Source of the DNA: a virus
Taxonomy: Duplodnaviria > Heunggongvirae > Uroviricota > Caudoviricetes
IMG/VR virus record: IMGVR_UViG_2778261637_000004
Reading direction: 5' to 3' (one strand)
Length of the DNA stretch: 20,133 nt
The notes under the pieces were generated by a model, which saw only the letters and a program-made list of their open reading frames with translations, did not search any database and was not told the origin of the DNA. Shown here in pieces: positions 887 to 20,133 of the stretch. Within the stretch, counting starts at the first letter, position 1, and the number at the start of each line of letters is the position of its first letter. The position numbers and the translations under genes are program-made.

Positions 887-1533
887 TTGTGAGTATCTCA
901 CGTTCTCACTGCGCTGGGCAAAAAAACATCGCAAAATCTGGAGCAGGCACGCAAAACAGAATTGAATGTTGCGGGGAGGAAAAATGCCGCTCTGTTTGAG
1001 TGGGCGGCATTTGTGAAGGCTGAAAAGGAAGAATTGGCGTTACGAGTTATTCTGTTGAATCTGTTTGTAGAGTATTGGCCTCAGTTCCGCATTGTAGCTG
1101 ATTTTTTTCTAATGCGTTTTTTGATTATGTACACCCTTATGTACACGTTTTTTTAAAGCGTTCAGCAATTACGCTGGTGGATGATCACGGATAACCTGAC
1201 ATCTACAGCCGCCTTAAAAAGCTGAACCCGACAAGCATTACTGCGTATCGGGTTCGTTCGCTCTTTCTACTCGTGGCAGATGAGTTTACGGTGTGATTTT
1301 ATCGGGCGAGGGTATTGTATCAGGCATCCCCTTTTCTATGCAGATTTGCATAGTTCCGAATGGTGGCGTTATGGAAGCCTCCCATATCAGCATCATGCCC
1401 ACCAGCGTGAAGTATTTTTTATTTCGCGGGTGTAAAAATTTGACGAGGCGGGCGGTCCCATAAGCAATGGGTTGTAGGGATTTCGATCCCCCCTCCTGAA
1501 TGCAATTTTTCGTATATATATATACAAAACAGT

Positions 1534-1688
1534 GCGGGTTATGCGGGTTACCGGGTTATCTTAGCGTGCTAACTATTTTTTATTCTTTAGTATCAATATG
1601 TTGTAAAATGCACTGTTCATTATTCAAGCATCGCATAACCCGCAAAACATCCCAAATAACCCGCAAACGCCCCAAAATAACCCGCAAA
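1534..1688. repeat. Iteron cluster A: three tandem GCGGGTTAY 9-mers, a ~75 bp AT-rich spacer, then three ATAACCCGCAAA copies at 20-22 bp spacing; putative origin or cis-replication region
   Basis: Tandem copies at 1534-1542, 1543-1551 and 1552-1559 (degenerate). AT-rich spacer 1561-1630. Inverted copies at 1635-1646, 1655-1666 and 1677-1688. No ORF covers the region. Confidence 0.6.
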
Positions 1689-2351
1689 CACATTGCTGAA
1701 AGCAGGGGTGGATAGTTCCACTGGTGCCACAGAACGGCTGAATACGGTAACTGTTGCTGGTGGTCTGTCCTGTTGTCGTTCCAGTCTCATCAAATTGAGA
1801 GGCAAGACAAAGTGCATTTTTGCACTATAGCCAAAGCCTCATAAAACATAGTTACCCCCACAGGTTGGCAAACCATTACCCAACGCAATTAAGTGCGTCA
1901 GAATCGATTACAGCGCGTTCCTGTGGCACGTTGTTGCCGTTCTCAACAGTGAAAGGAGAGCGTAAAAAGCGCATATCTATTACTGTTGAGGGGTGTAGCG
2001 GCATATATCGCGCATATCCACGCCGTTAATCCCGATACCGTCACTGCGCATTGAGATCAACCAGAAGATTAAGATAGTTTTACCTGAAATTATCCAAATA
2101 ATTGTTTTAACTGATTAATTTTTCGAATATCTATTGTTAGGGAATAAATCATCAGATACACCATAAAACGACATCTTTCAGGGTGTAGAAGATGCAAAGC
2201 CGGTACTGAAGAAAAGACAAAGAATATGAATGGCTGGACACACGATGGAAGGATTGTCCATTGAAGGATCAATCCCCATGGTATAAGTATTAATAAAACC
2301 GCGCAGCGGGCTTTTTTATCTGCGGTTTCCCGCCCGGGCGGCGGTGGCATT

Positions 2352-2388: not shown

Positions 2389-2703
2389 TCACGATAGTTC
2401 CGTTTTGTTGAATTCAATTATATCAAGGTCAGAACTTTCGTAATCCTTACCGAATAAAGCAAAACATATCGCGTCAAGTTCTCTCTTATGTTTGGACGCC
2501 CGATCATAATTACCACCCCAACAGCAAATGAATCCACCAAGTACTGCTGATTCAAAAAGTAATGATGCTGCATCAATATGTCTGAACCAGGAGTCTATAA
2601 GTAAAGCAGAGAGTGATATTAATGTTCCCCACCCGCCAATCCTTCTCCATTTCTCAGCTTCATATTTAAGAGAAGCAATATATTCAATTTTATCTCTCGT
2701 CAT
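2389..2703 (-). CDS. Small predicted membrane protein (104 aa, two hydrophobic segments), AT-rich; last gene of the cargo operon
   Basis: Its ATG overlaps the stop of the upstream 925-aa gene (TGATG), indicating translational coupling. Hydrophobic stretches IGGWGTLISLSALLIDSWF and ASLLFESAVLGGFICCWGG. About 38% GC against a GC-rich neighbourhood. Confidence 0.6.
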   Translation of the reverse strand: MTRDKIEYIASLKYEAEKWRRIGGWGTLISLSALLIDSWFRHIDAASLLFESAVLGGFICCWGGNYDRASKHKRELDAICFALFGKDYESSDLDIIEFNKTELS

Positions 2704-5480
2704 CAGTTCCCCACCGCCTTTCCAAAATCCGGTGCTCTACGTGGCGCAATAGCACCCGGTTCCCACCAACTCGTTATGTCGAACTCCCGTTGCGCGCGGT
2801 CCCTTACTCGATCATTGTAACCAGGGTTTGCCATCTCCTGAAGTTGTTGCAATATCAGGTGATTGGTTATCGCTTTCGCATACCACAGGTTTGCGAATGG
2901 AGTGATCATGCGGGCTGTTTTCAGTGCATCGGCACCGAATGATGTTTCTTCACCCTGTAGAGCCTTCTGTGGGTTAGTAATCAGTAATTTTGTTAACTGC
3001 TCTGCAAAGCTCAACACAGGGCCACCCATAGTGGCACCGATGCTGGAGCCATATTGCGTATGGTCCTGGAAAATAAAATCACCGTAGATACCGAACGAAC
3101 CACCTTTCAGTAGAGCCTGAACCCATGTGGTTGGTTTTGTCATATCCAGCGGGTCATTACCATTTAACAAACTGTTCATCTGGATCGCAAACATACCAGC
3201 AAGAGTTGTTCCCCCGATATATGAGGCCAGAAATTTAATGGCCGGAACGGTGTCCAAATCCCGTGTTCTGTTAACAAGTTGCCGAAATCCAGCAAATGGG
3301 GTTGTTTTGAAGAGCATGAAGCTCTTCATTAACTCGCCAGCATCATCACGGGCATATGTATCAATACCCGTAGCGGTGGTCACAGCATTGGTCATCTCAC
3401 CGTGCGTAATTCCCAGCAATTTCTGGGCTGCTTCAGCGCGTGCATTACGAATCATGCGCGTGATGGTCTGCTCAGCCTCAGCGTCGAATGCTTCTTTCAT
3501 CCGTTTCAGGCGTTCTGGAGGGAGATCTCCAAGGGCTGCCAGTGCCTTTTCACTCCCGGCACGAATCCGGGCAATACGGTCTGCCATAATGTCGGCGATT
3601 ACGTTATCGGGCACAGCGTAAATCGCGTCTGGCGTCATCCCCATATGCCCGGCAGTAGTCATCGGCCTGAGTTCTGCCGCTGCCATGATGGCCCAGTCCT
3701 CATTGCTCCATCCCTTGTTAGCCAGAATGGTTTTATCGGTTCCTTTTATATCGTCCAGCGTCTTAAATTTTCTGGTCAGCTCGCCAATATTTTTGTACAT
3801 CAGGAGACCAAACGACGCTTTGTTTGCGCGGTCCATAGCGATCAGCCCGGACCACTTCAGTGTCTTCTCTGCGAACCAGCCAGTTATGCCGCGAGACAAG
3901 TCAAACCCGCCCATTTTCGAAACCACAGCAGCATGTGAATCCACCAGCAGACCGAGTTCAGCATTCGCCTTTTTGGCATCTCCACTAAACAGGTTTTTGA
4001 TAGTGTTAACGGAAAGCCGCATTCCACCACGGGTAAAGCCCAGCGCCTGCGCATTTGCCCGCATAATTGCCTGGTCGCTGGTTGCTGTCAGTACGCTGGT
4101 GCCAAGCATGGCGCTGGTCATCAGGTTACGCAGACCACCAACTGCTGAAGAGAACACACTCGATGAAGCGACACCATTTAGGCCAGCCATTGAGTTGAAC
4201 ATACGGGCAACTAATTTGGCCTCATCCTCCATTTCTTTTTTGCGTTTCCCGCCTGTTACTGCGCGCTTATAGATGCGATCCAGTACCAGGGAAAAGTTTC
4301 TTTCGGCGTCCGGACCAAAGGCTTTAACGACGCCCAAATCCCTGGATGATGATTGCAGGTGCGACATCATCACCCCCACCAGCGGCTGCTGAGTGTATCG
4401 CTCCATATAGGCGAAGTGTGACTGCGCATCCTTGAACGCCATCACCCTGTGCTGAGAACCACGGCTCTTTATTCCTCCGGCTCCCATAAATGTACCAGGC
4501 TCAATTTTGTTTGCCCCATCAGTGGCCTTCGTTTCAAAGATCGCTTCCAGTGCCTGACGGTACTCGACGTCATTCATAATGCTGCCGTCAGGATTAACGT
4601 AATTGCTGCGATCCTGCGTGTTGTAAGCGTCATCAACCCATTTCTGGCGGGCAAACTCAATCGGTGGCTGGCGACCTGAAAGACGTGCTGTAGCTTGCTC
4701 TGCCACTGGTAACGATGCCAGCCATTCTTCGCGCCCGGCATTGCGAATAAGGTCAGCATCATCCACATATGGCGTATGCCAGTCTTCTCGCAGGCCTATG
4801 TCAAAGCCGTTGTCGTTCATCTCATGACGAACACGGCCTGTTACATCCTTCCAAATCTGTGCAATTTTCTTCGCCAGGGGATTACCGGTATCTTCGCCAT
4901 AAATTTCTTTCAGGATCTGGAGTTGTGCAGACTTTGCCGCCTGCCTGTCGAATACACTCCGAAACCGCTGCTCTCCAAGCGCCCTGCTCTGCTCGAAGAA
5001 TTTGCGGACGTCATCACCTGCTTTTAGAAGTTCAGCACTGAGCTGACGGGACCAGTCCTGATATGCCCCAATTGCAAGCTCTTCAGCAGAAGTAACGGAG
5101 ATATCAGCTTTGTCTCTCGATCGTCGGCCAGCAAAAATAAACTGCTGCAAATTAACAGGTGTCTGCTGATCAGGCGGGATGTTAGCATCGAGAGTGTCAG
5201 TAATTTTACTGATGGCGATCGCATTCTGGGCAACACGCTGTCTTTTCTTGTACACATCATGAACCACACGCTGGCGTACCAGTTCTGCTGCATCCATGTA
5301 TGTTTGAGCATCAGGAATACCACTTTTGCCTTCTTTTGCATTCTTTCTGTGCACATGCTGCACAGCTTCTTTGATACGATCTTCAATATTTTTCAGCTCA
5401 TCAGCCTTTGGCTGGCGACCAAGTGTCTGCGCAATAGCTTCAACACATGCCTGTTTCATTATGGGTTCCTCAAGAAGCAC
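2703..5480 (-). CDS. Large hypothetical protein (~918-925 aa), Gly/Ala/Ser/Thr-rich with hydrophobic glycine-rich segments; cargo operon gene 3
   Basis: Long uninterrupted ORF. The track start is a GTG at 5480; the more likely start is the ATG at 5459 (MKQACVEAIAQ) preceded by GAGGAA. No Walker A or other recognisable catalytic motif. Segments such as GTSVLTATSDQAIMRANAQALGFTRGGM and GGTTLAGMFAIQMNSLLNG resemble phage structural or ejection-protein composition. Confidence 0.85.
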   Translation of the reverse strand: MLLEEPIMKQACVEAIAQTLGRQPKADELKNIEDRIKEAVQHVHRKNAKEGKSGIPDAQTYMDAAELVRQRVVHDVYKKRQRVAQNAIAISKITDTLDANIPPDQQTPVNLQQFIFAGRRSRDKADISVTSAEELAIGAYQDWSRQLSAELLKAGDDVRKFFEQSRALGEQRFRSVFDRQAAKSAQLQILKEIYGEDTGNPLAKKIAQIWKDVTGRVRHEMNDNGFDIGLREDWHTPYVDDADLIRNAGREEWLASLPVAEQATARLSGRQPPIEFARQKWVDDAYNTQDRSNYVNPDGSIMNDVEYRQALEAIFETKATDGANKIEPGTFMGAGGIKSRGSQHRVMAFKDAQSHFAYMERYTQQPLVGVMMSHLQSSSRDLGVVKAFGPDAERNFSLVLDRIYKRAVTGGKRKKEMEDEAKLVARMFNSMAGLNGVASSSVFSSAVGGLRNLMTSAMLGTSVLTATSDQAIMRANAQALGFTRGGMRLSVNTIKNLFSGDAKKANAELGLLVDSHAAVVSKMGGFDLSRGITGWFAEKTLKWSGLIAMDRANKASFGLLMYKNIGELTRKFKTLDDIKGTDKTILANKGWSNEDWAIMAAAELRPMTTAGHMGMTPDAIYAVPDNVIADIMADRIARIRAGSEKALAALGDLPPERLKRMKEAFDAEAEQTITRMIRNARAEAAQKLLGITHGEMTNAVTTATGIDTYARDDAGELMKSFMLFKTTPFAGFRQLVNRTRDLDTVPAIKFLASYIGGTTLAGMFAIQMNSLLNGNDPLDMTKPTTWVQALLKGGSFGIYGDFIFQDHTQYGSSIGATMGGPVLSFAEQLTKLLITNPQKALQGEETSFGADALKTARMITPFANLWYAKAITNHLILQQLQEMANPGYNDRVRDRAQREFDITSWWEPGAIAPRRAPDFGKAVGN

Positions 5481-5487
5481 GCTGCCG

Positions 5488-7512
5488 CTACAGAATAAAC
5501 CTTCGATTCGTTCTGGACTGTCTTAATCTGTTCATCCAACTCAGCCAGGAGATCAGAAAGTTTTGTCGGGTTTCCGGGTGAGCTATAGTCAGCTCAGGAT
5601 TGGCAACAGCCATGTCCCTGGCAGCCATAAGGTCATAGCTGTTGGATGAGAGAACCTGCCCTGTATCTGGATCAACGCTGACGTCCCCTCTGTGTTCACC
5701 AGCCGATGAGAAAGCACTTTCAGCACGAGGGACAGGCGATTCACTAATTGGCTCTGATGATGTTTCATATCTGACACCATTTTCTTCAAAAACCTTTTGT
5801 ATTTCATGGTATTGCTCTTGGTAAGTATCAGATGTATCTGATCGCAATGGACCATCAAGCCCTCGCGCCATCCCCCCAACATTTACAGGCTGACCATCAT
5901 TAAGTTGCCTGTATGCTTCATCCATGGCGTCAACATGGCTGTTGATGCTCTCATTGCTGGTGTGAAGCACTGGTGACGATTCAATATCGTAATGAAGCCC
6001 CTCATTCAAAATGTGGGCTGCATCAATATCGCTTGGTTTTATTCTTTCCCTCGCCCGGATACCAAAAACTTTTTCTACTGCGGCTTCCAGTTTCATATTG
6101 CGAAGACGCATACTTACGAGTAACCGTAACTGCTCAGGTGTAACGGTTCCAACCTGAATACCACTGTATCTGAATATATAGGCTTTAAAACCTGAAATAA
6201 TTTTTTCCCATGACGAAACGCTTGTCTTTAGAGATGGATTTACTGCATGTGCGGCAACTTCTTCAGCGTATAACCACTCAGGATATGTTTCAGGGTACTC
6301 ACCCCTTTTCTTATATTCATAATATTGTGACATCCCATATGCAAATTCAGGATAGTCAGAATGCTTGTTTGCAGATTTAAGTACAGCATTAGCTAGCTTT
6401 CTGGCCTTCCAGTCAGGGTAATGGCGCTGCTCAAGATGAAGCGCCTCATGATGAAGGGTTTCTAACAGTTCTTCATGGTCTTTTAATCCATTAATATTTA
6501 TTCTTATTATTGGTTCTTTTCCAGAAGCTACTGTCACATGACCTTTATTCAGAAGTATTTCTCCATCACTATTTTTTATTGCTGGTTCATTAATAAGTTC
6601 TATTACTCCTGAATCAGATAAATCACGAACCATTGACTCAATGTTACCATCAGGAGATTGCTGATAATGTTCACCAAAAGTTGATTTTATTTCTTCTGCA
6701 GAAATGTTCGACTCTGTACCATCATGGTTATTATGGGTAGTCAGGTGATGAACGCCACCAAAGACCCCGCCTAAAACGGCATCGACTAACATCGCCTGAC
6801 CGTCAAATACCCGGTACTGTTTTGCCATCTCCGTGTAGCCTTTTTCCTCCAGTGTTGCACCGACAGAGTAACGGTTCAGTCCACCGAATCCGGTGTTGAT
6901 TGCCACACCTGAGGCAATGCGCGTTGCCAGTGTGGTGCCGACGGCAGCGGGTAAGGCCATACCCACAGCATTGAAAAGGCTCTGCTGCGTTGCCAGGTTA
7001 CGCGCCGTAGCCTCATCTACTCCCTTCCCTTTAAAATCCTGATAGGACTGCTCATACGTAGAACCGAAGGCTGTAGCAGCGCCGATGAGTGGGCCGCCAA
7101 ACATAGTTGTTCCGATTGCAGGAACAAATTTACCAAGCTCATTTAATACCTCAGCCGCCATTCCCTGGCTGCCTGCATCAGGCTTCACATAGCTGCGGGC
7201 ATCCTGTAACTGTTTTCCGATCGTGTCGTATGTATCATTCAGTGTTTTGTCAGCATCAGGGAACATCTCCCGAAAAATATTAACAGTCGGTGCCACGTCT
7301 GCGGTAAATGCCGGATCGCTAATCAGGCGCTTGCTGAATCCGACGGCAGACTGCGCGAGACCGAGAGCCCCCTCCGCTACGCCGCTCAAAAGTGCAGTAC
7401 CTGAACCCTGGAAGGGAGTCGGATCGTAGTCTTCTGGCCTTGCTGGGTTGGCAACTGTTTTGTCGTCAATCCATGCCTGACCTTCTGGAGCCAAAGAAAA
7501 AACATCAGACAT
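5488..7512 (-). CDS. Large hypothetical protein (674 aa) with an embedded AT-rich segment carrying an HExxH(x4)H zincin-like motif; cargo operon gene 2
   Basis: Its ATG overlaps the stop of the 843-aa gene (TAATG). HEALHLEQRH occupies residues 355-364 (nt ~6421-6450). Roughly nt 6170-6760 are 27-35% GC, against about 55-60% in the flanking parts of the same gene. Confidence 0.85.
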   Translation of the reverse strand: MSDVFSLAPEGQAWIDDKTVANPARPEDYDPTPFQGSGTALLSGVAEGALGLAQSAVGFSKRLISDPAFTADVAPTVNIFREMFPDADKTLNDTYDTIGKQLQDARSYVKPDAGSQGMAAEVLNELGKFVPAIGTTMFGGPLIGAATAFGSTYEQSYQDFKGKGVDEATARNLATQQSLFNAVGMALPAAVGTTLATRIASGVAINTGFGGLNRYSVGATLEEKGYTEMAKQYRVFDGQAMLVDAVLGGVFGGVHHLTTHNNHDGTESNISAEEIKSTFGEHYQQSPDGNIESMVRDLSDSGVIELINEPAIKNSDGEILLNKGHVTVASGKEPIIRININGLKDHEELLETLHHEALHLEQRHYPDWKARKLANAVLKSANKHSDYPEFAYGMSQYYEYKKRGEYPETYPEWLYAEEVAAHAVNPSLKTSVSSWEKIISGFKAYIFRYSGIQVGTVTPEQLRLLVSMRLRNMKLEAAVEKVFGIRARERIKPSDIDAAHILNEGLHYDIESSPVLHTSNESINSHVDAMDEAYRQLNDGQPVNVGGMARGLDGPLRSDTSDTYQEQYHEIQKVFEENGVRYETSSEPISESPVPRAESAFSSAGEHRGDVSVDPDTGQVLSSNSYDLMAARDMAVANPELTIAHPETRQNFLISWLSWMNRLRQSRTNRRFIL

Positions 7513-10043
7513 TATTCAACCCTCACGACAATAGCTTTATTGGTTCTGGGATCTGTTGCCCAGCGTCCGCTACCATTTACAAGCCGATACCGGTTATTGC
7601 CGATATTAACTGGCGTGAAATTTGACACTGCATTTACGTTAAGTCCGGCATCTTTCAGTGCTTGTTTCGCAGATGTGGTATAGCGATCTTTGAAAGTAGA
7701 TTTATCCATGCCGAAAGGCATTACAACGTCGCCGCCATTAAAACCATTGTATATACCGCCAGTAGCATACTTCACGGCATCAGCTACAATGTCTGTATCA
7801 GGCATACTGGTTCTTACCGTAGATGCATCACCAGATTGATAAGCTATTCCTGCATAAGCGGCTTTGAAAAGGCTATAACTGATCTGGCGTAACTGCGGGT
7901 TACGGGCAAATGCATTACCTACCTGTTCGTCGAAAGCGTCTTTCATCTTATCTTCGCTCGGCAACTGTACCGGAGTTATGCCCGCATTCTTCATGGCCTT
8001 CGTCGGATTCAGTAGTTGGTCGCCGGAAAGAATAACCTTTGCAACGTCGTACTTGTTCATCGTCGGCTTATACCCGATGAACTGACTATATGGGATCGTC
8101 GGCTTGGTGTTGTCGTACTGGTTATCCGGCGTGCCCAGCAGCAGCGCAGAATAGGCTGTTGCCGCACTGTTCGGAGCAATTACAGATGCCACCTGCCGTA
8201 TTGCTGGCGCAGGCAGCTTCTCCCCCATGCTCTGCAACAGTTTAATTGTCTGGTCAACGTTCTGAGTGCCGCGCACCTGCTGTGCCAGCGCAGCCGCCTC
8301 TTCACTGTTGAGGATTGGGGCATTAATTCCCAACGCGCGTAAGCTTTCCTGCGACGAGAAACGGTTAGCCACCTCGGCAGTGATGTCGTCAGGGTTGTTG
8401 CTGGTGATCGGCTTATAGGCTCCGATTTCCACCGCTGCACTAAACGGATTATTCTGCCTCTGGGTTATTACCTTCGTGGCTGCCGCCGATACCCGGTCGA
8501 ATAACTCCGCACGAGACGCATACCCCTCCCCTGTTTCACCAGTATCCGGGCGCAATTGCTCAACATATGCGGTAATGCTGCTTGTCGGCATGTTGCGGAA
8601 AGAGCCTATATACTGTCCGGCGATCTGCAAATTTCTGAACTCGATATATCGCAGGTTTCCTTCTCTGACACCATAAGCTGCAATGAACTCATCCTCACCA
8701 GGTGGGTTAGGAAATTCAACGCCACGCATAAACGCAGCCGTTGCATCGCGAACCCTGCTATCGAGCATCGTTCTATATTCAGCCTGCTGCTGTCTGGCTA
8801 ATGCATCCGTCTGTCGCAACACGCTGGCCTGATCTGATTCACTTAAAGCATCGAACCAGGCTACACCGGTATAACGTTTATTTTTTGTCGGTAGCTGAGA
8901 AAGCCCCAGTGCGGCACTAACGCCAGCGGCCAATTGCTGATCACTGTACGGCTGACTGCCTTGCTCATGATGAATAATTGCTTTGCACAGAGATTTCAGT
9001 GTGTCAGGATTTGATGCGTCAAGCGGCTGGTCAGGAGTTACACCGAGCTGAGCACATACTGCCCGTATATAAGCATCAGTTTTATTATCATCACTGGCCG
9101 GTGCCCAGCGATTAATTATTTCGCTGATGGTGTCATAACCCTGACGCTGATACGACAGCAAATTGCGACCAAGCGCGCGAATACCGTGTTCAGGGGTTTC
9201 GAATTTGGCAAAGCGACCATCATCACCAGTCTGCCCAACCCACGGATTAGTTTTGCTGTATTCAAGATTGCCGGGGTTATTGTTGCGTATACCGCGGGTA
9301 CGATCGGAAGAGCCACTATCTGCTACAGCACGGCGAGATCCAGCAGCAGTATCGCTTAACTCTCCGTTTTGCTGTCTTACCTGAAGATAGTTTGCTCCAA
9401 TAGCATTTTGAGCAGTTGCTTTTGCTGTTGCTTCTTTAAACTCGATTTTCTTGGCCTGGATTTGCTCGTCGCTCCAGCCATGCGCAATACCGTAATCCTC
9501 AATTTGCTGGAAAGTTTGCGTATTAGCCAATATGTATGCTGCGTTGTTGCCATATAATGCTGAGGCATTTTTACCATTATTCAGCAGTGTCGCCTGAAAC
9601 TGGCCTTCTTCGTAGGCATTTATTTGCCCTATCTCGTACCTCCCGGCCTGCGTAGCGAACTGAATACGCTGCTGCTGCGCCTGCTGCATGAAAGCATTAC
9701 GAGCCTGTTCATCCGGCAGCGACATAGCCAGTTGTTCGACCTGAGCATCAAACTGCTGTGTATACTCATGGCCTTTTCCAATAGCATTTTTCCCTTTCAG
9801 ATTAAGCAATCCTGTTTCAGGATTATTCAGCAGATCACTGCCTGTCTGACTGAGTTTAAGGGATGCCTCCTGAACCAAGGCAATATTGGCGCGCTGTTTT
9901 GCCTGACCAAGAACATCAATTGCCTCTGTCCCTGCCCGAACAAAAGCATCACCAATACCTGGCTGAGAAAACGTCTGCAAGCCTGCTGACTGAACTCCAC
10001 GGCTCTCAACCTGACGTCCGGATACTGTTGGTACGACTGGCAT
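7512..10043 (-). CDS. Large hypothetical protein (843 aa), Gln/Ala-rich N-terminal region and a conserved-looking GIRNNNPGNLEYS...RWAP block; cargo operon gene 1
   Basis: Long ORF with ATG at 10043 and an AGGGGG Shine-Dalgarno upstream. The block at residues 251-315 (nt ~9099-9293) looks like a conserved domain core. GKNAIGKG is not a canonical Walker A. Confidence 0.85.
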   Translation of the reverse strand: MPVVPTVSGRQVESRGVQSAGLQTFSQPGIGDAFVRAGTEAIDVLGQAKQRANIALVQEASLKLSQTGSDLLNNPETGLLNLKGKNAIGKGHEYTQQFDAQVEQLAMSLPDEQARNAFMQQAQQQRIQFATQAGRYEIGQINAYEEGQFQATLLNNGKNASALYGNNAAYILANTQTFQQIEDYGIAHGWSDEQIQAKKIEFKEATAKATAQNAIGANYLQVRQQNGELSDTAAGSRRAVADSGSSDRTRGIRNNNPGNLEYSKTNPWVGQTGDDGRFAKFETPEHGIRALGRNLLSYQRQGYDTISEIINRWAPASDDNKTDAYIRAVCAQLGVTPDQPLDASNPDTLKSLCKAIIHHEQGSQPYSDQQLAAGVSAALGLSQLPTKNKRYTGVAWFDALSESDQASVLRQTDALARQQQAEYRTMLDSRVRDATAAFMRGVEFPNPPGEDEFIAAYGVREGNLRYIEFRNLQIAGQYIGSFRNMPTSSITAYVEQLRPDTGETGEGYASRAELFDRVSAAATKVITQRQNNPFSAAVEIGAYKPITSNNPDDITAEVANRFSSQESLRALGINAPILNSEEAAALAQQVRGTQNVDQTIKLLQSMGEKLPAPAIRQVASVIAPNSAATAYSALLLGTPDNQYDNTKPTIPYSQFIGYKPTMNKYDVAKVILSGDQLLNPTKAMKNAGITPVQLPSEDKMKDAFDEQVGNAFARNPQLRQISYSLFKAAYAGIAYQSGDASTVRTSMPDTDIVADAVKYATGGIYNGFNGGDVVMPFGMDKSTFKDRYTTSAKQALKDAGLNVNAVSNFTPVNIGNNRYRLVNGSGRWATDPRTNKAIVVRVE

Positions 10044-12069: not shown

Positions 12070-12132
12070 GCTGTTTGTTCTCCGGTTTTAACGTGATAGT
12101 TACGCTTGTTTACACTCTTACAGTGAAATTTT

Positions 12133-12255
12133 GCGGGTTACAATCGCACATTTGCGGGTTATAACTGCTGTTTTGCGGGTTACGTGCGGGTTATTGATTT
12201 CCTTTTTAATCATGCAGTTAATTAACTTATGCACAGGATAACCCGCATAACCCGC
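12133..12255. repeat. Iteron cluster B: four GCGGGTTAY copies (21 bp spacing), a ~43 bp AT-rich spacer, then two tandem ATAACCCGC 9-mers; putative origin
   Basis: Copies at 12133-12141, 12154-12162, 12175-12183 and 12186-12194; inverted tandem copies at 12238-12246 and 12247-12255. Sits in the 210 bp gap between the primase stop and the ssb start. The arrangement is the reverse complement of cluster A. Confidence 0.6.
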
Positions 12256-12279
12256 AACTTTTTACCTCACACAGGGAAG

Positions 12280-14406
12280 TTAATCTTCTGCTTCAGGCTG
12301 GAACATCAGCACGTAAAAAATATGCTGCTTCCCGCCAATCCTGCCGAGCGCCTTTTTCTTGTAACGGCGGTCGCCTCCCGCTTCCAGCATTCCGGCAGCA
12401 CTCAACGCGCGGGCAAAGTGAGACGGATTAAATCCCTGTGCGATCTCCCCCTCAAACACATGCGGAAACGTGTAAAAACGGAACTCATCATCTTCATTTC
12501 TGATACTCCCCTTTCTGTATCCGGCAAGGTCTTTAATCGGTAAATCACGCTCATCGCTGTTTGGATAAGGAAGGTATCGACTGAACCCGAACGACGACAA
12601 AAACGCCTCAGCCTGTTCAACCATCTGTTTAAATTCCCTGTTGCCCGTGCCGAATTCCTTCACCCAGGCATTAAAGTTATGCTGAACTGCATCACGGCAC
12701 GCCTGAACATCCCAGCCTGTAACATGACCGGAAAGCACAAGCGCGGCCTCCAGTACGGCGAATCTTTCCCCCACGCGGTGAACCTGCTCGCCGTAGCTCT
12801 CCGGTATCAGGTTGCGCCACCGCTCGCGACATGCCCTTACCGCGTCCTTTGCCTCCTGCTGGTGGCCTGCCAGCCATTTAACCCACTCACGACCTGCCGC
12901 CCCGTGATTTTCTGTCCAGGCATCTTTTAACGCGTCTGCGTGCGCCTTTCCGGTGCTGTATTCGTGAAACTGCGAGGCCTTTTCCATCGGCACGTTAAGC
13001 AGACGGACAAGCTGCCCCGCTTTAATTTTTATCCCTTCCGTTTTGAGGAATGTTTCAACGTCCATTTCTCCGGTGCTGATTGCCACCGTGCGCCAGTGTT
13101 TTATCTCCCTGTTGCCGCCGTCCTTCGCCCCCTGTAATTTCCCGGAACCGTTAAACAGCGTATAGGCTGACGTGGACACCTCCCGCGCGTTTCCGGCCTG
13201 GCCTATTTCATCCAGGGGTAACAGCCCGTCATTATGTGCTTCGGCCTCGTTGGCGATACCTAACGCCGTTCCGTACCAGGTCAGCCGTTGCGCGTCCGGC
13301 TCTCCCCATAAACTTGATGCAATGTTCTGTGTGGTGGTTTTACCTGCTGATGATTGCTCAAAAAGATGAACCCCGAAGCCGTCAGCACCCACCAGCCCGA
13401 TTAATGGTGCGGATAGCGATACCGCCACACCCAGCATCATGGACGGATTACCACCAGCCAGCCGCGCCACGGTATCGCGCCAGCCCTCCGCTGTTCCCGC
13501 CACGGAATAGCCATTAACTGCGGCAGTTTTTCCGGTAAACAGGATGGGTTTCTCTGATTCACCAATGACCGAACCATCCGGCATGATGTACGCACCAAAA
13601 TGCCAGCCCGTTGTAGTGCTTAGCTGCCATTCCTCATGACTTCCGCTTAACTGCATCCAGTCAGCCAGGATGGCTCTGTATTTGCCGTTGGTCGTCACGT
13701 TAAGACCGTGGTCTTTCAGCAACCGCCAGCCGTCACGGTCACCAATGCCTCCGCACGGGACCGCCATTGTAATGACCTCATGGTTTGCTGGTTTTTTCCA
13801 GCGCATCACGCGGTAATGCTCTTTGCCGATTGTTCCTGTTCCCAGTAGTTCAAGCGGAGAACATAACCACGTCTCAGGCCGGATAATTTCGCCTGACTGC
13901 TTGTCCACTTTGGGCGTTACCCAGAAAACACCATCGACGCGACTTTCAACACGAGGCTTTAATTCGTCATCATAATTTCCGGTGAAATTTGTCTTTGCCG
14001 GAAGGTTGATCACCAGACTGTTACCGCGTTCCGCATCATCCTTCAGTCCAGCCATGCGCGGTGTCCAGTCCTCCGGCTGCTGGTCAACAAAGCTGCGGTA
14101 GCAACGCGCCTCCTTCACACCCGCCACTGCAAGCAGTGTCGCTATCTGTGTAAGGTGCTGCTCTGATATTTCACCAGCACGATAAACGCGCACGTAATAG
14201 CGCCCTTTGTCGATGATTTGCGTGTCTGCCAGACTCGCCAGTTGTTCCGGTCCAAGAATAACTGGATGTGTATCATCTGCCGCAATATGCTTTCCGGCCC
14301 ATTCGCTCCACTCTTTCGCATGTGCCCAGGCATCACTACCCGCAAAGATAATCACCTCCGTCATTTTGTCTTTCGGCTGGTGCTTTAAATTCGGTGCGCG
14401 TTTCAT
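12280..14406 (-). CDS. Replication initiator: primase/helicase-type protein with a P-loop NTPase domain
   Basis: 708 aa. Walker A-like LFEQSSAGKTTTQ and an acidic LLPLDEIG stretch (Walker B-like). ATGA start/stop overlap with the upstream 100-aa gene. Sits beside the iterons and ssb, as in P4-alpha-like and PICI replicons. Confidence 0.8.
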   Translation of the reverse strand: MKRAPNLKHQPKDKMTEVIIFAGSDAWAHAKEWSEWAGKHIAADDTHPVILGPEQLASLADTQIIDKGRYYVRVYRAGEISEQHLTQIATLLAVAGVKEARCYRSFVDQQPEDWTPRMAGLKDDAERGNSLVINLPAKTNFTGNYDDELKPRVESRVDGVFWVTPKVDKQSGEIIRPETWLCSPLELLGTGTIGKEHYRVMRWKKPANHEVITMAVPCGGIGDRDGWRLLKDHGLNVTTNGKYRAILADWMQLSGSHEEWQLSTTTGWHFGAYIMPDGSVIGESEKPILFTGKTAAVNGYSVAGTAEGWRDTVARLAGGNPSMMLGVAVSLSAPLIGLVGADGFGVHLFEQSSAGKTTTQNIASSLWGEPDAQRLTWYGTALGIANEAEAHNDGLLPLDEIGQAGNAREVSTSAYTLFNGSGKLQGAKDGGNREIKHWRTVAISTGEMDVETFLKTEGIKIKAGQLVRLLNVPMEKASQFHEYSTGKAHADALKDAWTENHGAAGREWVKWLAGHQQEAKDAVRACRERWRNLIPESYGEQVHRVGERFAVLEAALVLSGHVTGWDVQACRDAVQHNFNAWVKEFGTGNREFKQMVEQAEAFLSSFGFSRYLPYPNSDERDLPIKDLAGYRKGSIRNEDDEFRFYTFPHVFEGEIAQGFNPSHFARALSAAGMLEAGGDRRYKKKALGRIGGKQHIFYVLMFQPEAED

Positions 14407-14707: not shown

Positions 14708-14965
14708 TTATTTCCCGGTGTGGGGTTCTTCTTTATATTTATGGGCTAACAAATCTGGTAATTGCCTGTATTTATCCTCGGCAATATATTCAGAATAATC
14801 GACAGCACTGTTCAGTATATCTAACGCCGTTTCATGCTCCAGATTCGAAACTATAAGGAACGTTGCTACTTTTAGCATATTCGCGATATGCAAAAGAGCA
14901 TCAATTTCATTTTTTGGCGCTTCGCTGAATTTTTGCTCCAGAAGAATAAATCGTTCATCACGCAT
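14708..14965 (-). CDS. Hypothetical protein (85 aa)
   Basis: ATG at 14965 preceded by AGGAGGA; acidic, helical-looking sequence. Confidence 0.6.
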   Translation of the reverse strand: MRDERFILLEQKFSEAPKNEIDALLHIANMLKVATFLIVSNLEHETALDILNSAVDYSEYIAEDKYRQLPDLLAHKYKEEPHTGK

Positions 14966-15161
14966 AGTGTTCCTCCTGACGGATGCGGGCAGTAAATACC
15001 ATCACGCAGCCAGCCGGGGATTGCTGACGGGCTTCCTGTTCGCTGGTGGCCACGATGTGAATCACGCGCGGTTGTGCCGTACTCAGGGCGATAAAACGCC
15101 AGATGTATTTATTCAGGTTGTGCGAGTCCCGCCCTTGCGGGTGTGTGGTATGATTTCTCAT
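14958..15161 (-). CDS. Hypothetical small protein (67 aa), first gene of the leftward replication operon
   Basis: This is the C-terminal 67 codons of the 415-aa track ORF, starting at an ATG (15161) with GAGGT upstream; it overlaps the next gene by 8 nt. The rest of the 415-aa ORF conflicts with a well-supported plus-strand gene. Confidence 0.45.
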   Translation of the reverse strand: MRNHTTHPQGRDSHNLNKYIWRFIALSTAQPRVIHIVATSEQEARQQSPAGCVMVFTARIRQEEHYA

Positions 15162-15257
15162 AGCTACCTCGATACTTCTGCTATCGTTGGTGGTTAGAAG
15201 CCCGGTTAGTGTTAGCGCACTGCCGGGTTTCGTCGTTTCTGCACCTTGCATCAACAA

Positions 15258-15336
15258 GGTGTAAGTAACTTTATTTATAGGTGGCTTACATGTCAATGCT
15301 TTTATGTAAGACTTTTTATGTGTATATTGTCTTACA
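15258..15336. promoter_or_regulatory. Divergent promoter/operator region with nested inverted repeats
   Basis: GTGTAAG (15258-15264) pairs with CTTACAC (15330-15336), and CTTACAT (15284-15290) with ATGTAAG (15303-15309). TATATT -10-like element at 15322-15327. Lies between the leftward replication operon and the rightward RHH-like gene. Confidence 0.45.
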
Positions 15337-15357
15337 CTTTCGTTAAGAGGATTACAG

Positions 15358-15663
15358 ATGGCTACAGGTTCAAAAAACGCAAAATCACAATCGCTGACAG
15401 CTCGGATCCCGCATGATGTTATTGAAGGCATGGAATCCGTAAAACTGGACGGCGAAAGCAACGCCGGATTCATAGTAACCGCCATGCGTGGTGAGATCGC
15501 CCGCCGCCAGGCAGAAGGAAGCGGAGAAAATCCCCTCGTGTCTTCACTGGATGCCTTAGTTAAGGTCGAACAAATCGGCATCAAGGCAGCGGAGGAAATC
15601 GGGCAACTCGTAGCCGTCGCTCGTGAAGAACTCCAGCGCCGGGAGGCCAAAGAGCAGGAATAG
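15358..15663 (+). CDS. Small DNA-binding protein, ribbon-helix-helix-like (MobC/CopG-like); candidate island regulator
   Basis: ATG preceded by AAGAGGA. SLTARIPHDVIEGMESVKLDGESNAGFIVTAMRGEIARR is consistent with an RHH N-terminus followed by a helical C-terminal region. Confidence 0.6.
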   Translation: MATGSKNAKSQSLTARIPHDVIEGMESVKLDGESNAGFIVTAMRGEIARRQAEGSGENPLVSSLDALVKVEQIGIKAAEEIGQLVAVAREELQRREAKEQE

Positions 15664-15720
15664 CCACTATCAGCGCCATAGTTTGAGGAACGCAGGCGCA
15701 TTGCTTTACAGGGCAGCACC

Positions 15721-15900
15721 ATGAGCGACACAGAATCAACAAAAACACCATCACCAACTCGTAAGAGACGACGCAAAAATATAGCGCATGAACATGAATC
15801 AGAAAGATTCGCACCTTGTTCGTTTGCTCTTGAGAAATTCCTTAAAGAGCACAGGAAAAAGCTCTCGTTGCAAACCCTGGAACGAACCAAATCTGACTGA
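15721..15900 (+). CDS. Small basic protein (59 aa), not in the ORF track
   Basis: Hand translation gives MSDTESTKTPSPTRKRRRKNIAHEHESERFAPCSFALEKFLKEHRKKLSLQTLERTKSD. Followed by a plus-strand terminator; the ribosome-binding site is weak. Confidence 0.35.
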   Translation: MSDTESTKTPSPTRKRRRKNIAHEHESERFAPCSFALEKFLKEHRKKLSLQTLERTKSD

Positions 15901-15967
15901 TCACATTGCCCACCAGCTGCAAATCTGGCATTGTTGGCGATGCGTTTGATTTCCTTTGTTCCCACTG

Positions 15968-15995
15968 GCGACCTCTCCCGGTCGCCTTTGTTTTG
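15968..15995 (+). terminator. Rho-independent terminator for the rightward small operon
   Basis: GGCGACC-TCTCCC-GGTCGCC hairpin followed by TTTGTTTT. Confidence 0.6.
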
Positions 15996-16044
15996 CCAGT
16001 TATCCAGCAACGGGGCGCTTTTTCTTTCTGTAACGTTCGGATCG

Positions 16045-16602
16045 TTACACATTGTTTTCACCCTCCAGAAAATCAGGCTGATATTTACGCCATAGCGCCC
16101 GCTCTTCTCGTTCCAGTGCATCTTTTGCCTCTTTGCATTGCTGTAACCTGTAACCGCGTTTGCTGGCTTCCTGTTGATAGGCAGCCTGGCGTTTACTGAA
16201 ATCATTCAGCATGGCAAACGGAACACCATAACCCCCCGTTTTGCGGATTGAAGGGATAACCTCGCGGAATACCCAGTTACTGAAACGGTGCGCAAATGTG
16301 CCTGGTGTGGAAGCTTTACGGCTGCGGGCGATCAGTTTGTAGAAACCTGATTCAGAGACAACATTCCAGCTTCTGGCACCACCACGCTTACCGGAATGCC
16401 CCTCGGTTAAAGCTAGGGTCATTACCTCGTCGTTATCCAGAACTGAAACGGCATCAGTAACATTGCTGATTTCCAGCGCAGCACACACATCAGCGCCAAC
16501 AAACCACGGCTCGCCGTTGATACTCACTATGCGCACCTGAATGTCATCGAATTTAATGACAGAGATTTCAGTGCGCCCGGCATAAAAGACAGGTTTACGC
16601 AT
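16045..16602 (-). CDS. Bro-N domain protein (phage anti-repressor family)
   Basis: 185 aa. IQVRIVSINGEPWFVGADVCAALEISNVTDAV is a typical Bro-N core. 8-nt overlap with the upstream gene. Confidence 0.8.
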   Translation of the reverse strand: MRKPVFYAGRTEISVIKFDDIQVRIVSINGEPWFVGADVCAALEISNVTDAVSVLDNDEVMTLALTEGHSGKRGGARSWNVVSESGFYKLIARSRKASTPGTFAHRFSNWVFREVIPSIRKTGGYGVPFAMLNDFSKRQAAYQQEASKRGYRLQQCKEAKDALEREERALWRKYQPDFLEGENNV

Positions 16603-17496: not shown

Positions 17497-17703
17497 TCAG
17501 GCTGATGTGTTTCGGCGTTCTTCCAGCCAGCGATTAATCTCTACCGCATCAAACGCGGTAACATTACTGGTAAGTTTTATAGGCCGTGGTAACGTGCCAT
17601 TTTTCACCCAGCGATCGATTGTTGGCATAGAGACTCCCAGCAGTTCTGGCAAACGGTATCGGCGAATGTAGCCAGTAGTAGGAATGGTAGATTGTTCTGT
17701 CAT
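17497..17703 (-). CDS. alpA: AlpA-family transcriptional regulator / excisionase-like protein
   Basis: 68 aa with a winged-HTH core (YIRRYRLPELLGVSMPTIDRWVKNGTLPRPIKL); the usual integrase partner in P4-type and CP4-57-type islands. Confidence 0.8.
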   Translation of the reverse strand: MTEQSTIPTTGYIRRYRLPELLGVSMPTIDRWVKNGTLPRPIKLTSNVTAFDAVEINRWLEERRNTSA

Positions 17704-18864: not shown

Positions 18865-20133
18865 CTATGATAGCTTATGCATTTTCCTGATTGGCGTCAC
18901 GTTGTATTCTTCATTGCGTTCTAGCGCTACCAGCAGATCAGCCCACTGTGCCAGCGCAGCTTTACGCTCATCAAAATACTGATGGCGGTTATAAATCCCC
19001 TCCACACCCTTAATGCGATGATTGAGGCATCGTTCCGCTACGACAGGATCAACACCCAATGCTGCTAAATGAGTACGTGCGGTACGCCGGAAGTCGTGAA
19101 TCGTGAAATTAGGCACATCCGGCATTTCGGCGCGAACCTTAGCCAGTGCTACGGGTAAAGTGCTTTCCTGAATATGTGGGATCATTCTGTTTTGCATCTT
19201 CCTGGCTGGAAGCACCCATGCGCTATTACATGAAAAGGTGTGTAGCTCTCTCAACCATTCAACGGCAGGAGAAGGTAGAGGTATATCAATAGGGTCTCCG
19301 TTTTTGCTGCGTTCTTCCGGCAAATGCCATACCGCACCATCTAAATCAAACTCTTCCCATCGTGCGGCGCATAACTCCATCTTACGAACGCATAGTGCCA
19401 GCAATAGCTTAAATGTCAGTTCGTTCTGGCGGCTGAATCCTTTGGCTTTACGCATTGCCTGAAAAAATTGGATTAATTCGTCACGGTTCAGCCAGCGATC
19501 ACGAGATAATTCTTTCCCACCAGCATCTGATACTTCGAAAGCTGAGCAGGGATTTATCTCCAGAGCGTGGCGTTTTATCCCATAGTCAAAGATACGGCGT
19601 GTCCAGCGTAATACATCTGTTGCTATCGTTGGTGCTCCTCGGTCAACGATACCTTTCAACATGTCGTCAATGTGGCGTGGCTTAACGTCCTCTACCTTCA
19701 TATGCCCAATGCAGGGGTTAATATCCTTATCAATTCTCCGGCGAAGGATATCGGGATGTTTCCATCTCGGAAGTATCTGTCGCTCGAAGTATTCGGCGGC
19801 CAGATCTGAAACGCGCATGGCGTTTTTCTCAGCCTCCATTTTTGCCAGTGCTTCAGCTTTTCGTTCCTGTTTTTCTGCTGCTACGTCATAGCCAAGAGCA
19901 ACTCTGGCTGACAGCTCTTTTGCTGTTTCTCTGGCTTTTGATAGTGACAGTTCGGAGTAAGAGCCGATAACCATAGCCCGCTGTTTTCCTGCGAGCTTAT
20001 ATCGGAATCGCCAGAACGGGACTGTGTAGTTTTTGGGGTAGCAAATATAAAGGCCGTTGCCGTCTGCCTTGCCATCAAATCTGTCTCCCGCCTTTATCCA
20101 TGCGCGGATCTGCATATCTGTGAGTTTTGGCAT
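18865..20133 (-). CDS. Tyrosine recombinase, P4-type integrase with an N-terminal arm-binding (DUF4102-like) domain
   Basis: 422 aa. The N-terminus (LTDMQIRAWIK...DGNGLYICY...WRFRY) matches the P4-integrase arm domain. The C-terminus has HDFRRTARTHLAALG and a GIYNRHQY tyrosine region. The start codon is the final three bases of the window. Confidence 0.9.
   Translation of the reverse strand: MPKLTDMQIRAWIKAGDRFDGKADGNGLYICYPKNYTVPFWRFRYKLAGKQRAMVIGSYSELSLSKARETAKELSARVALGYDVAAEKQERKAEALAKMEAEKNAMRVSDLAAEYFERQILPRWKHPDILRRRIDKDINPCIGHMKVEDVKPRHIDDMLKGIVDRGAPTIATDVLRWTRRIFDYGIKRHALEINPCSAFEVSDAGGKELSRDRWLNRDELIQFFQAMRKAKGFSRQNELTFKLLLALCVRKMELCAARWEEFDLDGAVWHLPEERSKNGDPIDIPLPSPAVEWLRELHTFSCNSAWVLPARKMQNRMIPHIQESTLPVALAKVRAEMPDVPNFTIHDFRRTARTHLAALGVDPVVAERCLNHRIKGVEGIYNRHQYFDERKAALAQWADLLVALERNEEYNVTPIRKMHKLS

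Follow-up and report, generated by a model that had tools for sequence, protein, structure and literature searches.

Cluster A, an array of short repeats near one end of a PICI-type satellite of E. coli, is likely to be a Rep-binding array and the homolog of the distal half of a PICI origin built from two units, displaced from its partner beside the primase gene to the cos site of the island. Virulence and defence genes travel at high frequency with PICI satellites, which have the replication module among their defining features, and here is a common lineage in which the two origin units have been pulled apart and one of them has been fused to cos. An origin of this kind is known and the split layout is apparently new; a limited search of the PICI literature found neither an origin unit beside cos nor a split PICI origin. 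For annotators this carries the warning that origin-like arrays at island ends should be read as replicon, and not as att sites or cargo.

Repeat cluster A and the island that carries it

The window, i.e. the whole stretch of 20,133 nucleotides analysed here (IMG/VR record IMGVR_UViG_2778261637_000004), comprises a ~19-kb E. coli PICI-type satellite inserted between dinD (1–837) and yicC. Three abutting copies of GCGGGTTAY, an AT-rich spacer and three copies at 21-bp spacing had been described for cluster A in the initial annotation and taken as the architecture of an origin, and both the repeats and the arrangement hold (Table 1): opposed iterons flank the spacer, the second set being the inverse complement of the first, and the third abutting copy is without its first G, so that it follows at an interval of 8 bases instead of 9. 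GC content in the spacer reaches its minimum, 15%, at 1570–1609, compared with ~48% window-wide. The motif is also enriched, as had been anticipated, with 9 copies of CGGGTTAT in the window against 0.51 expected (a count reached in 0 of 100 shuffles), all of them within clusters A and B, whilst the two clusters (1534–1688 and 12133–12255) hold 12 exact copies of GCGGGTTAY, with a single one elsewhere in the window, at 7895. A 9-mer common throughout the host genome had been named as the observation that would speak against an origin, and GCGGGTTAY has 0 copies in 103.6 kb of the chromosome that borders related islands in E. coli.

Table 1. Coordinates of the features discussed, in window numbering.
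Feature	Position	Strand	Details
cos site, phiP27 type	1405–1500	+	core GTAAAAATTTGACGAGGCGGGCGGTCCC at 1432–1459; ~300–380 bp inward of the island boundary
Leader of unit A, TTTTTCGTATATATATATACAAAACAGT	1506–1533	+	contains a (TA)6 run; joins unit A to the cos module
Unit A, three abutting iterons	1534–1559	+	reads GCGGGTTAT GCGGGTTAC (C)CGGGTTAT
Unit A, AT-rich spacer (presumed unwinding element)	1560–1634		75 bp; GC 15–30%
IHF-consensus site TATCAATATGTTG in the unit A spacer	1591–1603	+	predicted; consensus WATCAANNNNTTR
Unit A, inverted iterons, three exact ATAACCCGCAAA	1635–1688	-	starts at 1635, 1656 and 1677; spacing exactly 21 bp
Unit B of the origin	12130–12255	+	TTTGCGGGTTAY at 12130, 12151 and 12172; GTGCGGGTTAT at 12184
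Unit B, remainder	12195–12237; 12238–12255		AT-rich 43-bp spacer; two abutting inverted iterons
DUF927 primase-helicase, 708 aa (inferred initiator)	12280–14406	-	Pfam DUF927, E = 1.7e-46; PHROG DNA primase
Codons for primase residues 561–708 (C-terminal domain)	12283–12726	-	co-varies with iteron sequence

Several features of unit A other than its iterons recur in related islands. The single match to the IHF consensus in the 20-kb window lies in the unit A spacer, and a match is found in the same place in the A units of the islands L002 (in both of its A units), L004, L016, L017 and L020, whatever their iteron type. The leader is kept in distal A units of both iteron classes described below, and occurs as TTTTTCGTATATATATATACAAAACA in an unsplit A unit of L002 (A', 15330–15356). 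The block of three abutting copies is present in the A units of all relatives, built in each on the lineage's own iteron. When divergence was measured pairwise among four distal GCGGGTTAY units, iteron columns differed by 4% and other columns by 22%, with 5 of 63 iteron columns variable compared with 42 of 113 elsewhere (Fisher p = 1.4e-5), a statistic that is indicative only because the compared sequences are few and related; the positions of the inverted iterons (1635–1688) are invariant or nearly so across the distal units, whilst the inter-iteron spacers diverge.

Nothing in cluster A rose above shuffle expectation in a promoter and terminator scan of 1000–2450, and the best result of an Rfam search of 900–2500 was a sub-threshold CRISPR-repeat match at 2104–2140 (E = 0.27), so that there is no RNA gene at cluster A. 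The open reading frames that cross the cluster (1500–1715 on the + strand and 1620–1817 on the - strand) have no PHROG match. The corresponding stretch of NZ_CP032892 is annotated with a 162-aa ‘hypothetical protein’, which the window does not hold intact and which is regarded as spurious.

The island genes all lie on the - strand and run from integrase (18865–20133) and AlpA (17497–17703) through AntA/Rha, BRO-N and DUF4222 to the DUF927 primase, cluster B, SSB, ProQ/FinO, small genes and three large genes, and end with two small ORFs, cluster A and ~470 bp more before the chromosome; a PerC-type gene also lies between the two clusters, along with SSB and ProQ. Gram-negative PICIs are recognised by int, alpA and pri-rep in one orientation with an ori after them, a size of 10–20 kb, an attachment site of their own and a cos or terS packaging signal, and the island has this layout. 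Its primase module is found again in E. coli islands of PICI gene order, e.g. the capsid-forming L003 by phoQ, and L002 and L016 at tRNA-Pro. The three large genes (2703–10043; 843, 674 and 925 aa) are homologs of consecutive ejection-protein genes of epsilon15/phiV10-type podoviruses (phiV10 p18–p20), the first with a transglycosylase-like region. Since they are homologs of podovirus virion-internal proteins, the ‘cargo operon’ of the initial annotation is a misreading: the intervening genes encode these ejection-protein homologs plus SSB, ProQ and the PerC-type protein. Capsid and terminase genes were not found in the island, which may supply its own ejection proteins, or the ejection-protein homologs may be decoys. 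The phiV10 terminase is PacB-like, whereas the cos site of the island is of the phiP27 type.

Empty-site genomes match the window up to ~1052–1063, and the island boundary lies at ~1053–1134. A tRNA scan of the window found none, so the att site is not tRNA-linked. The longest sequence common to both island ends is a 12-bp direct repeat, ATTATGTACACC (window 1123–1134; 39284–39295 in L001), whereas empty-site matching already stops at ~1052–1063. At the other side of the primase gene, a 415-aa ORF (14958–16205, - strand) occupies a place where relatives annotate a short Icd-like gene and an opposite-strand gene of the YlcI/YnfO family, and is probably not a gene; a 101-aa ORF on the + strand (15358–15663) matches phrog_6522 (E = 3e-58).

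A probable two-unit origin, split and joined to cos

The canonical position of a PICI ori is directly 3' of pri-rep (PMC6092414). In EcCICFT073 a pri-ori segment replicates a plasmid and its ori deletion does not, and PICI ori has been described as two iteron sets around an AT-rich region (PMC6092414), whilst a SaPI ori by definition has two or more iterons to each side of an AT-rich region, the two sets facing opposite ways (PMC9371898). Cluster B occupies that position, within the 210 bp that separate the primase stop (12280) from the SSB gene, which begins 60 bp past the unit; cluster A does not, being 10.6 kb from the stop. Both have the opposed architecture, with three + copies, the 75-bp spacer and three - copies in unit A and 4 + 2 copies in unit B. 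Cluster B is the mirror image of cluster A, with four copies at intervals of 21, 21 and 11 bp, then the spacer and the two inverted copies.

Twelve loci from other species were retrieved with the primase and then examined. In 10 of the 12 (L004 and L007 differ) the primase stop is followed directly by a ~300-bp composite array, in which unit B comes first, a pair of abutting iterons separated by an AT-rich spacer from four more at 11/21/21 bp; one extra iteron usually follows, and then unit A, with two or three inverted iterons spaced 21 bp and, past a second AT-rich spacer, three that abut. These arrays are built on lineage-specific iterons (TGGGTTAT, CGTGGTTCA, TTGGTTCAG, TGGGATAAG, CGGTTCA or TGGGACAAG), and their copy numbers and spacings match those of clusters B and A in the window. 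The GCGGGTTAY units A and B themselves stand side by side in L003 (the O157:H7 cf-PICI) and L021, and L002 has adjacent A and B units built on GTYGTCCCA; in unsplit relatives the homologous A unit lies no more than 350 bp from the primase stop. Judged by these loci, the usual enterobacterial PICI origin is a pair of inverted units with ~12 iterons and two AT-rich spacers. Because the array architecture of the relatives matches, we regard cluster A as the distal unit of such a two-unit inverted origin; the initial annotation had likened it to a separate crr element, and the comparison points instead to a displaced part of a normally contiguous origin. Unsplit islands also have an ~80-aa hypothetical ORF between unit A and SSB, overlapping the SSB start (15069–15311 in L002, 15526–15777 in L003, 14220–14462 in L021 and 9242–9493 in L019), and the split islands (the window, L016, L017 and L020) are without it.

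In the window unit A lies ~10.4 kb from unit B, and the relative orientation of the two units is that of unsplit islands. The SSB, ProQ and PerC genes and the late genes stand between units B and A in split islands, and therefore B stays by the primase whilst A is found at a distance (~10.4 kb in the window), fused to cos. The same split is seen in L017 (a capsid-forming island in yifB), in L016 (a short island at tRNA-Pro), in L004 of E. albertii, where the units are 2.2 kb apart, and in five IMG/VR contigs long enough to hold both units, where they are 7.9–9.3 kb apart. Window 1382–1764 is present over 80% or more of its length in no fewer than 123 of 5426 complete genomes of E. coli, and the split layout occurs at no fewer than four integration sites (dinD/yicC, tRNA-Pro, yifB and a prophage TerL). 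The last of these belongs to L020 (NZ_OZ501612, 1–14500), a split-origin capsid-forming PICI inside a prophage terminase large-subunit gene, a helper-embedded configuration, and the cos beside its unit A is strongly diverged. In contig L026 (IMGVR_UViG_2778261085_000011, ~775–830) the distal A unit has one of the three abutting iterons, the other two having been lost, probably via slippage between tandem copies.

The cos site adjoining unit A was overlooked in the initial annotation. Window 1414–1496 (83 bp) shares 87% identity with the cos-site region annotated in the Stx phage phiP27, with GAGGCGGGCG at 1445–1454 aligning with the annotated 10-nt cos of that phage, and the region also matches Burkholderia phages at their genome termini. 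A ~150-bp conserved cos flank precedes the distal A unit in every split island examined, and unit A is 75 bp from the cos core in split islands; in the unsplit island L003, as in phiP27, the TerS and HNH genes flank the cos, which in unsplit islands is far from A. The left part of the cos region, 1382–1413 (CATATCRGCATCATGCCCACC...), is PICI-specific, being conserved among islands and missing from phiP27, and may represent a cosB that belongs to the island itself.

The island L019 (NZ_CP068035) is a PICI at tRNA-Pro with a RepA-family helicase (7634–9240) instead of DUF927 and with ~9 copies of an iteron, AAAGTGGGGA, directly 3' of the helicase gene. Its island-end cos module (14065–14092) ends in ...TTTTTCGTAT, and neither an A unit nor any other origin unit adjoins it. 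Since the cos module occurs there without an A unit, A is not intrinsic to cos. A scan of viral contigs for the cos–A junction found GCGGGTTA-type units only, and so no new iteron classes. Taken across the islands compared here, the junction of unit A with cos belongs to one widespread lineage among the DUF927 islands.

Iteron specificity and the primase C-terminus

SaPI Reps are self-loading helicases in which a C-terminal winged helix reads the iterons (PMC9371898). The 708-aa primase of the window matches PDB 8tch, ‘Pathogenicity island protein’ (E = 2e-14, phmmer), over query residues 215–603 only; its helicase core also matches the SCCmec helicase Cch (5dgk), and NCBIfam gave no match within residues 561–708. 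The initial annotation had tied the iterons to this primase and its C-terminal domain, and the islands sort accordingly. Whilst the helicase core is 94–100% identical among the E. coli and E. albertii islands compared, the last 148 residues are 88–100% identical in the GCGGGTTAY islands (L001, L003, L017, L020 and L021) and 46–47% identical in the GGGAC-type islands (L002, L004 and L016). None of the primase N-terminus, integrase, AlpA, DUF4222, SSB or ProQ sorts by iteron type. Across species, where seven iteron types were found in 12 species, the nearest iteron, TGGGTTAT, pairs with the nearest C-terminal domain (67–68% identity). These comparisons support an assignment of the iterons to the 708-aa primase, and within it to the C-terminal domain, with which the island-specific iteron is cognate by co-variation only.

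The distal unit follows the same rule, A matching the B of its own island in two iteron classes. The GCGGGTTAY split class comprises the window, L001, L017, L020 and the five IMG/VR contigs, and the TGGGACAAGT split class comprises L016 and the E. albertii island L004; the adjoining cos module is unchanged across the two. Simple insertion of genes between the two units would leave A and B alike by shared ancestry, and part of their agreement may be owed to this rather than to selection. An exception is L002, which has kept an intact distal GCGGGTTA unit whilst its primase is GGGAC-specific and has its own complete origin (A' + B'), and in whose genome one place only matches the primase query. 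With a non-cognate primase and an origin of its own, this island indicates that distal A can persist without being required, and together with the eroded copy in L026 it shows that the distal unit can, as far as these islands allow it to be judged, be dispensable.

L002 also marks the limits of what has been exchanged. Block 15105–16001 of L002 (NZ_CP091024) replaces window 12101–12601 in islands that are otherwise 87–92% identical, and comprises ~110 C-terminal residues of the primase, both origin units and a small ORF. Its extent marks this block as a replication-specificity cassette, and on this evidence origin specificity is exchanged as a cassette made up of the Rep C-terminal domain and the iterons.

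Proposed function of unit A and known systems compared

From these observations we infer Rep binding, IHF binding, melting and a replication role for unit A. After induction the Rep C-terminal domain would bind the six A iterons, IHF would bend the spacer and the AT-rich stretch would melt, and the self-loading helicase would then enter at unit A, as at unit B. On this reading unit A would be either a further site of initiation or unwinding, or a partner of B that acts in cis. A more specific version, to which we give little credence, is that the two inverted units are half-origins, each loading one Rep hexamer for one fork direction, which evolution later separated. If this were true, initiation would take place at two opposite points on the circle, ~10.4 and 8.6 kb apart, with one start 75 bp from the packaging cut and initiation coupled to cos recognition or concatemer phasing, and split islands would be a natural system for the study of bidirectional forks by a self-loading helicase.

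Among the other explanations, the one that survives best, and which we nevertheless consider unlikely, is that cluster A is a functionless relic of recombination or gene insertion in the origin that persists only because the rearrangement is recent. It would account for the distal GCGGGTTA unit that L002 keeps beside a non-cognate primase and a complete second origin, and for the two abutting copies missing from L026, and unit B by itself has what the published definition of a PICI/SaPI ori asks for. A recent relic is, however, hard to reconcile with a split present in so many E. coli genomes, at several integration sites and in E. albertii, with iteron positions ~five times better conserved than their surroundings, with the retention of copy number, 21-bp phasing and the IHF-like site, or with distal units that match the proximal iteron in two specificity classes.

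Somewhat less probable again is that cluster A is a Rep-bound control site, handcuffing or looping with B to set copy number, or titrating the Rep of competing islands. Its iterons are the same as those of B and lie at a distance, iteron plasmids are generally known to use arrays outside the minimal origin in this way (reviewed in PMC4980987), and the non-cognate distal array of L002 could be a decoy for GCGGGTTAY-type Reps. The full origin architecture of unit A (AT-rich spacer, IHF-like site and opposed iteron sets) and its homology to part of a contiguous origin in most lineages speak against this proposal; the observations as such fit control and initiation alike.

The nearness of unit A to the cos core in every split island raises the question of whether it is part of the packaging signal, as a cosB- or cosQ-like array for the terminase small subunit, Rpp or HNH, and PICI-specific cosB regions, which differ from those of their helpers, are known (PMC6739421). 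This is very improbable, as the repeats change with the primase C-terminal domain whilst the cos module stays constant (L016 and L004 compared with the window), the RepA-type replicon L019 has the cos module and no A unit, the cos of unsplit islands is far from A, and phiP27 cos is without such repeats. We therefore rejected the array as a part of cos, the cos module being the same with different iterons and having none in L019. A role for the repeats at the attachment site, as arm-type sites of the integrase or as sites for excisionase, might be suggested by their place near one island end; it has a negligible chance of being right and was rejected on distance (400–480 bp from the island boundary) and on recurrence of the motif mid-island beside the primase gene, and the motif is moreover common to islands with integrases 24–30% identical and with different integration sites.

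In phage P4 the C-terminal domain of the primase-helicase binds iterons at two separated cis sites, one of them just downstream of the primase gene, and the type I iterons TGTTCACC are present in both ori and crr, which are both required in cis. The likeness of the split island to P4 is one of outline only, i.e. a primase-helicase with two separated iteron arrays, one downstream of its gene. The primase here is DUF927/SaPI-Rep-like and matched no P4 alpha structure, the iteron is different, and the two arrays are halves of what in most relatives is one contiguous origin. P4 ori and crr, of which the initial annotation was reminded, are no family relations of the clusters: the element is PICI-type, and no P4 protein or site homology was found. 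In iteron plasmids such as pSC101 and R6K (gamma ori) distant iteron arrays communicate by looping (PMC4980987), and phased iterons, an AT-rich region and an IHF site between arrays are shared with the island; the initiator here differs in being a self-loading helicase-primase rather than a DnaB-recruiting Rep, and there is no sequence relationship. With the phiP27 cos the identity of 87% over 83 bp includes the cohesive-end sequence; packaging in that phage is of the HNH/TerS-P27 type. The setting differs, the cos lying between HNH and TerS in phiP27 and L003, whilst here it is joined to an origin unit and stands at the end of an island without terminase or capsid genes. The origin itself is most like those of PICIs and SaPIs, with opposed island-specific iterons round an AT-rich region, the island's own Pri-Rep with a Rep core homologous to the solved 8tch, and the order int-alpA-...-pri/rep-ori. 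It departs from them in that the published ori lies directly 3' of pri-rep, where only unit B is found here, with A ~10.4 kb off, and in that our survey shows two inverted units, and not one, to be usual in enterobacterial origins.
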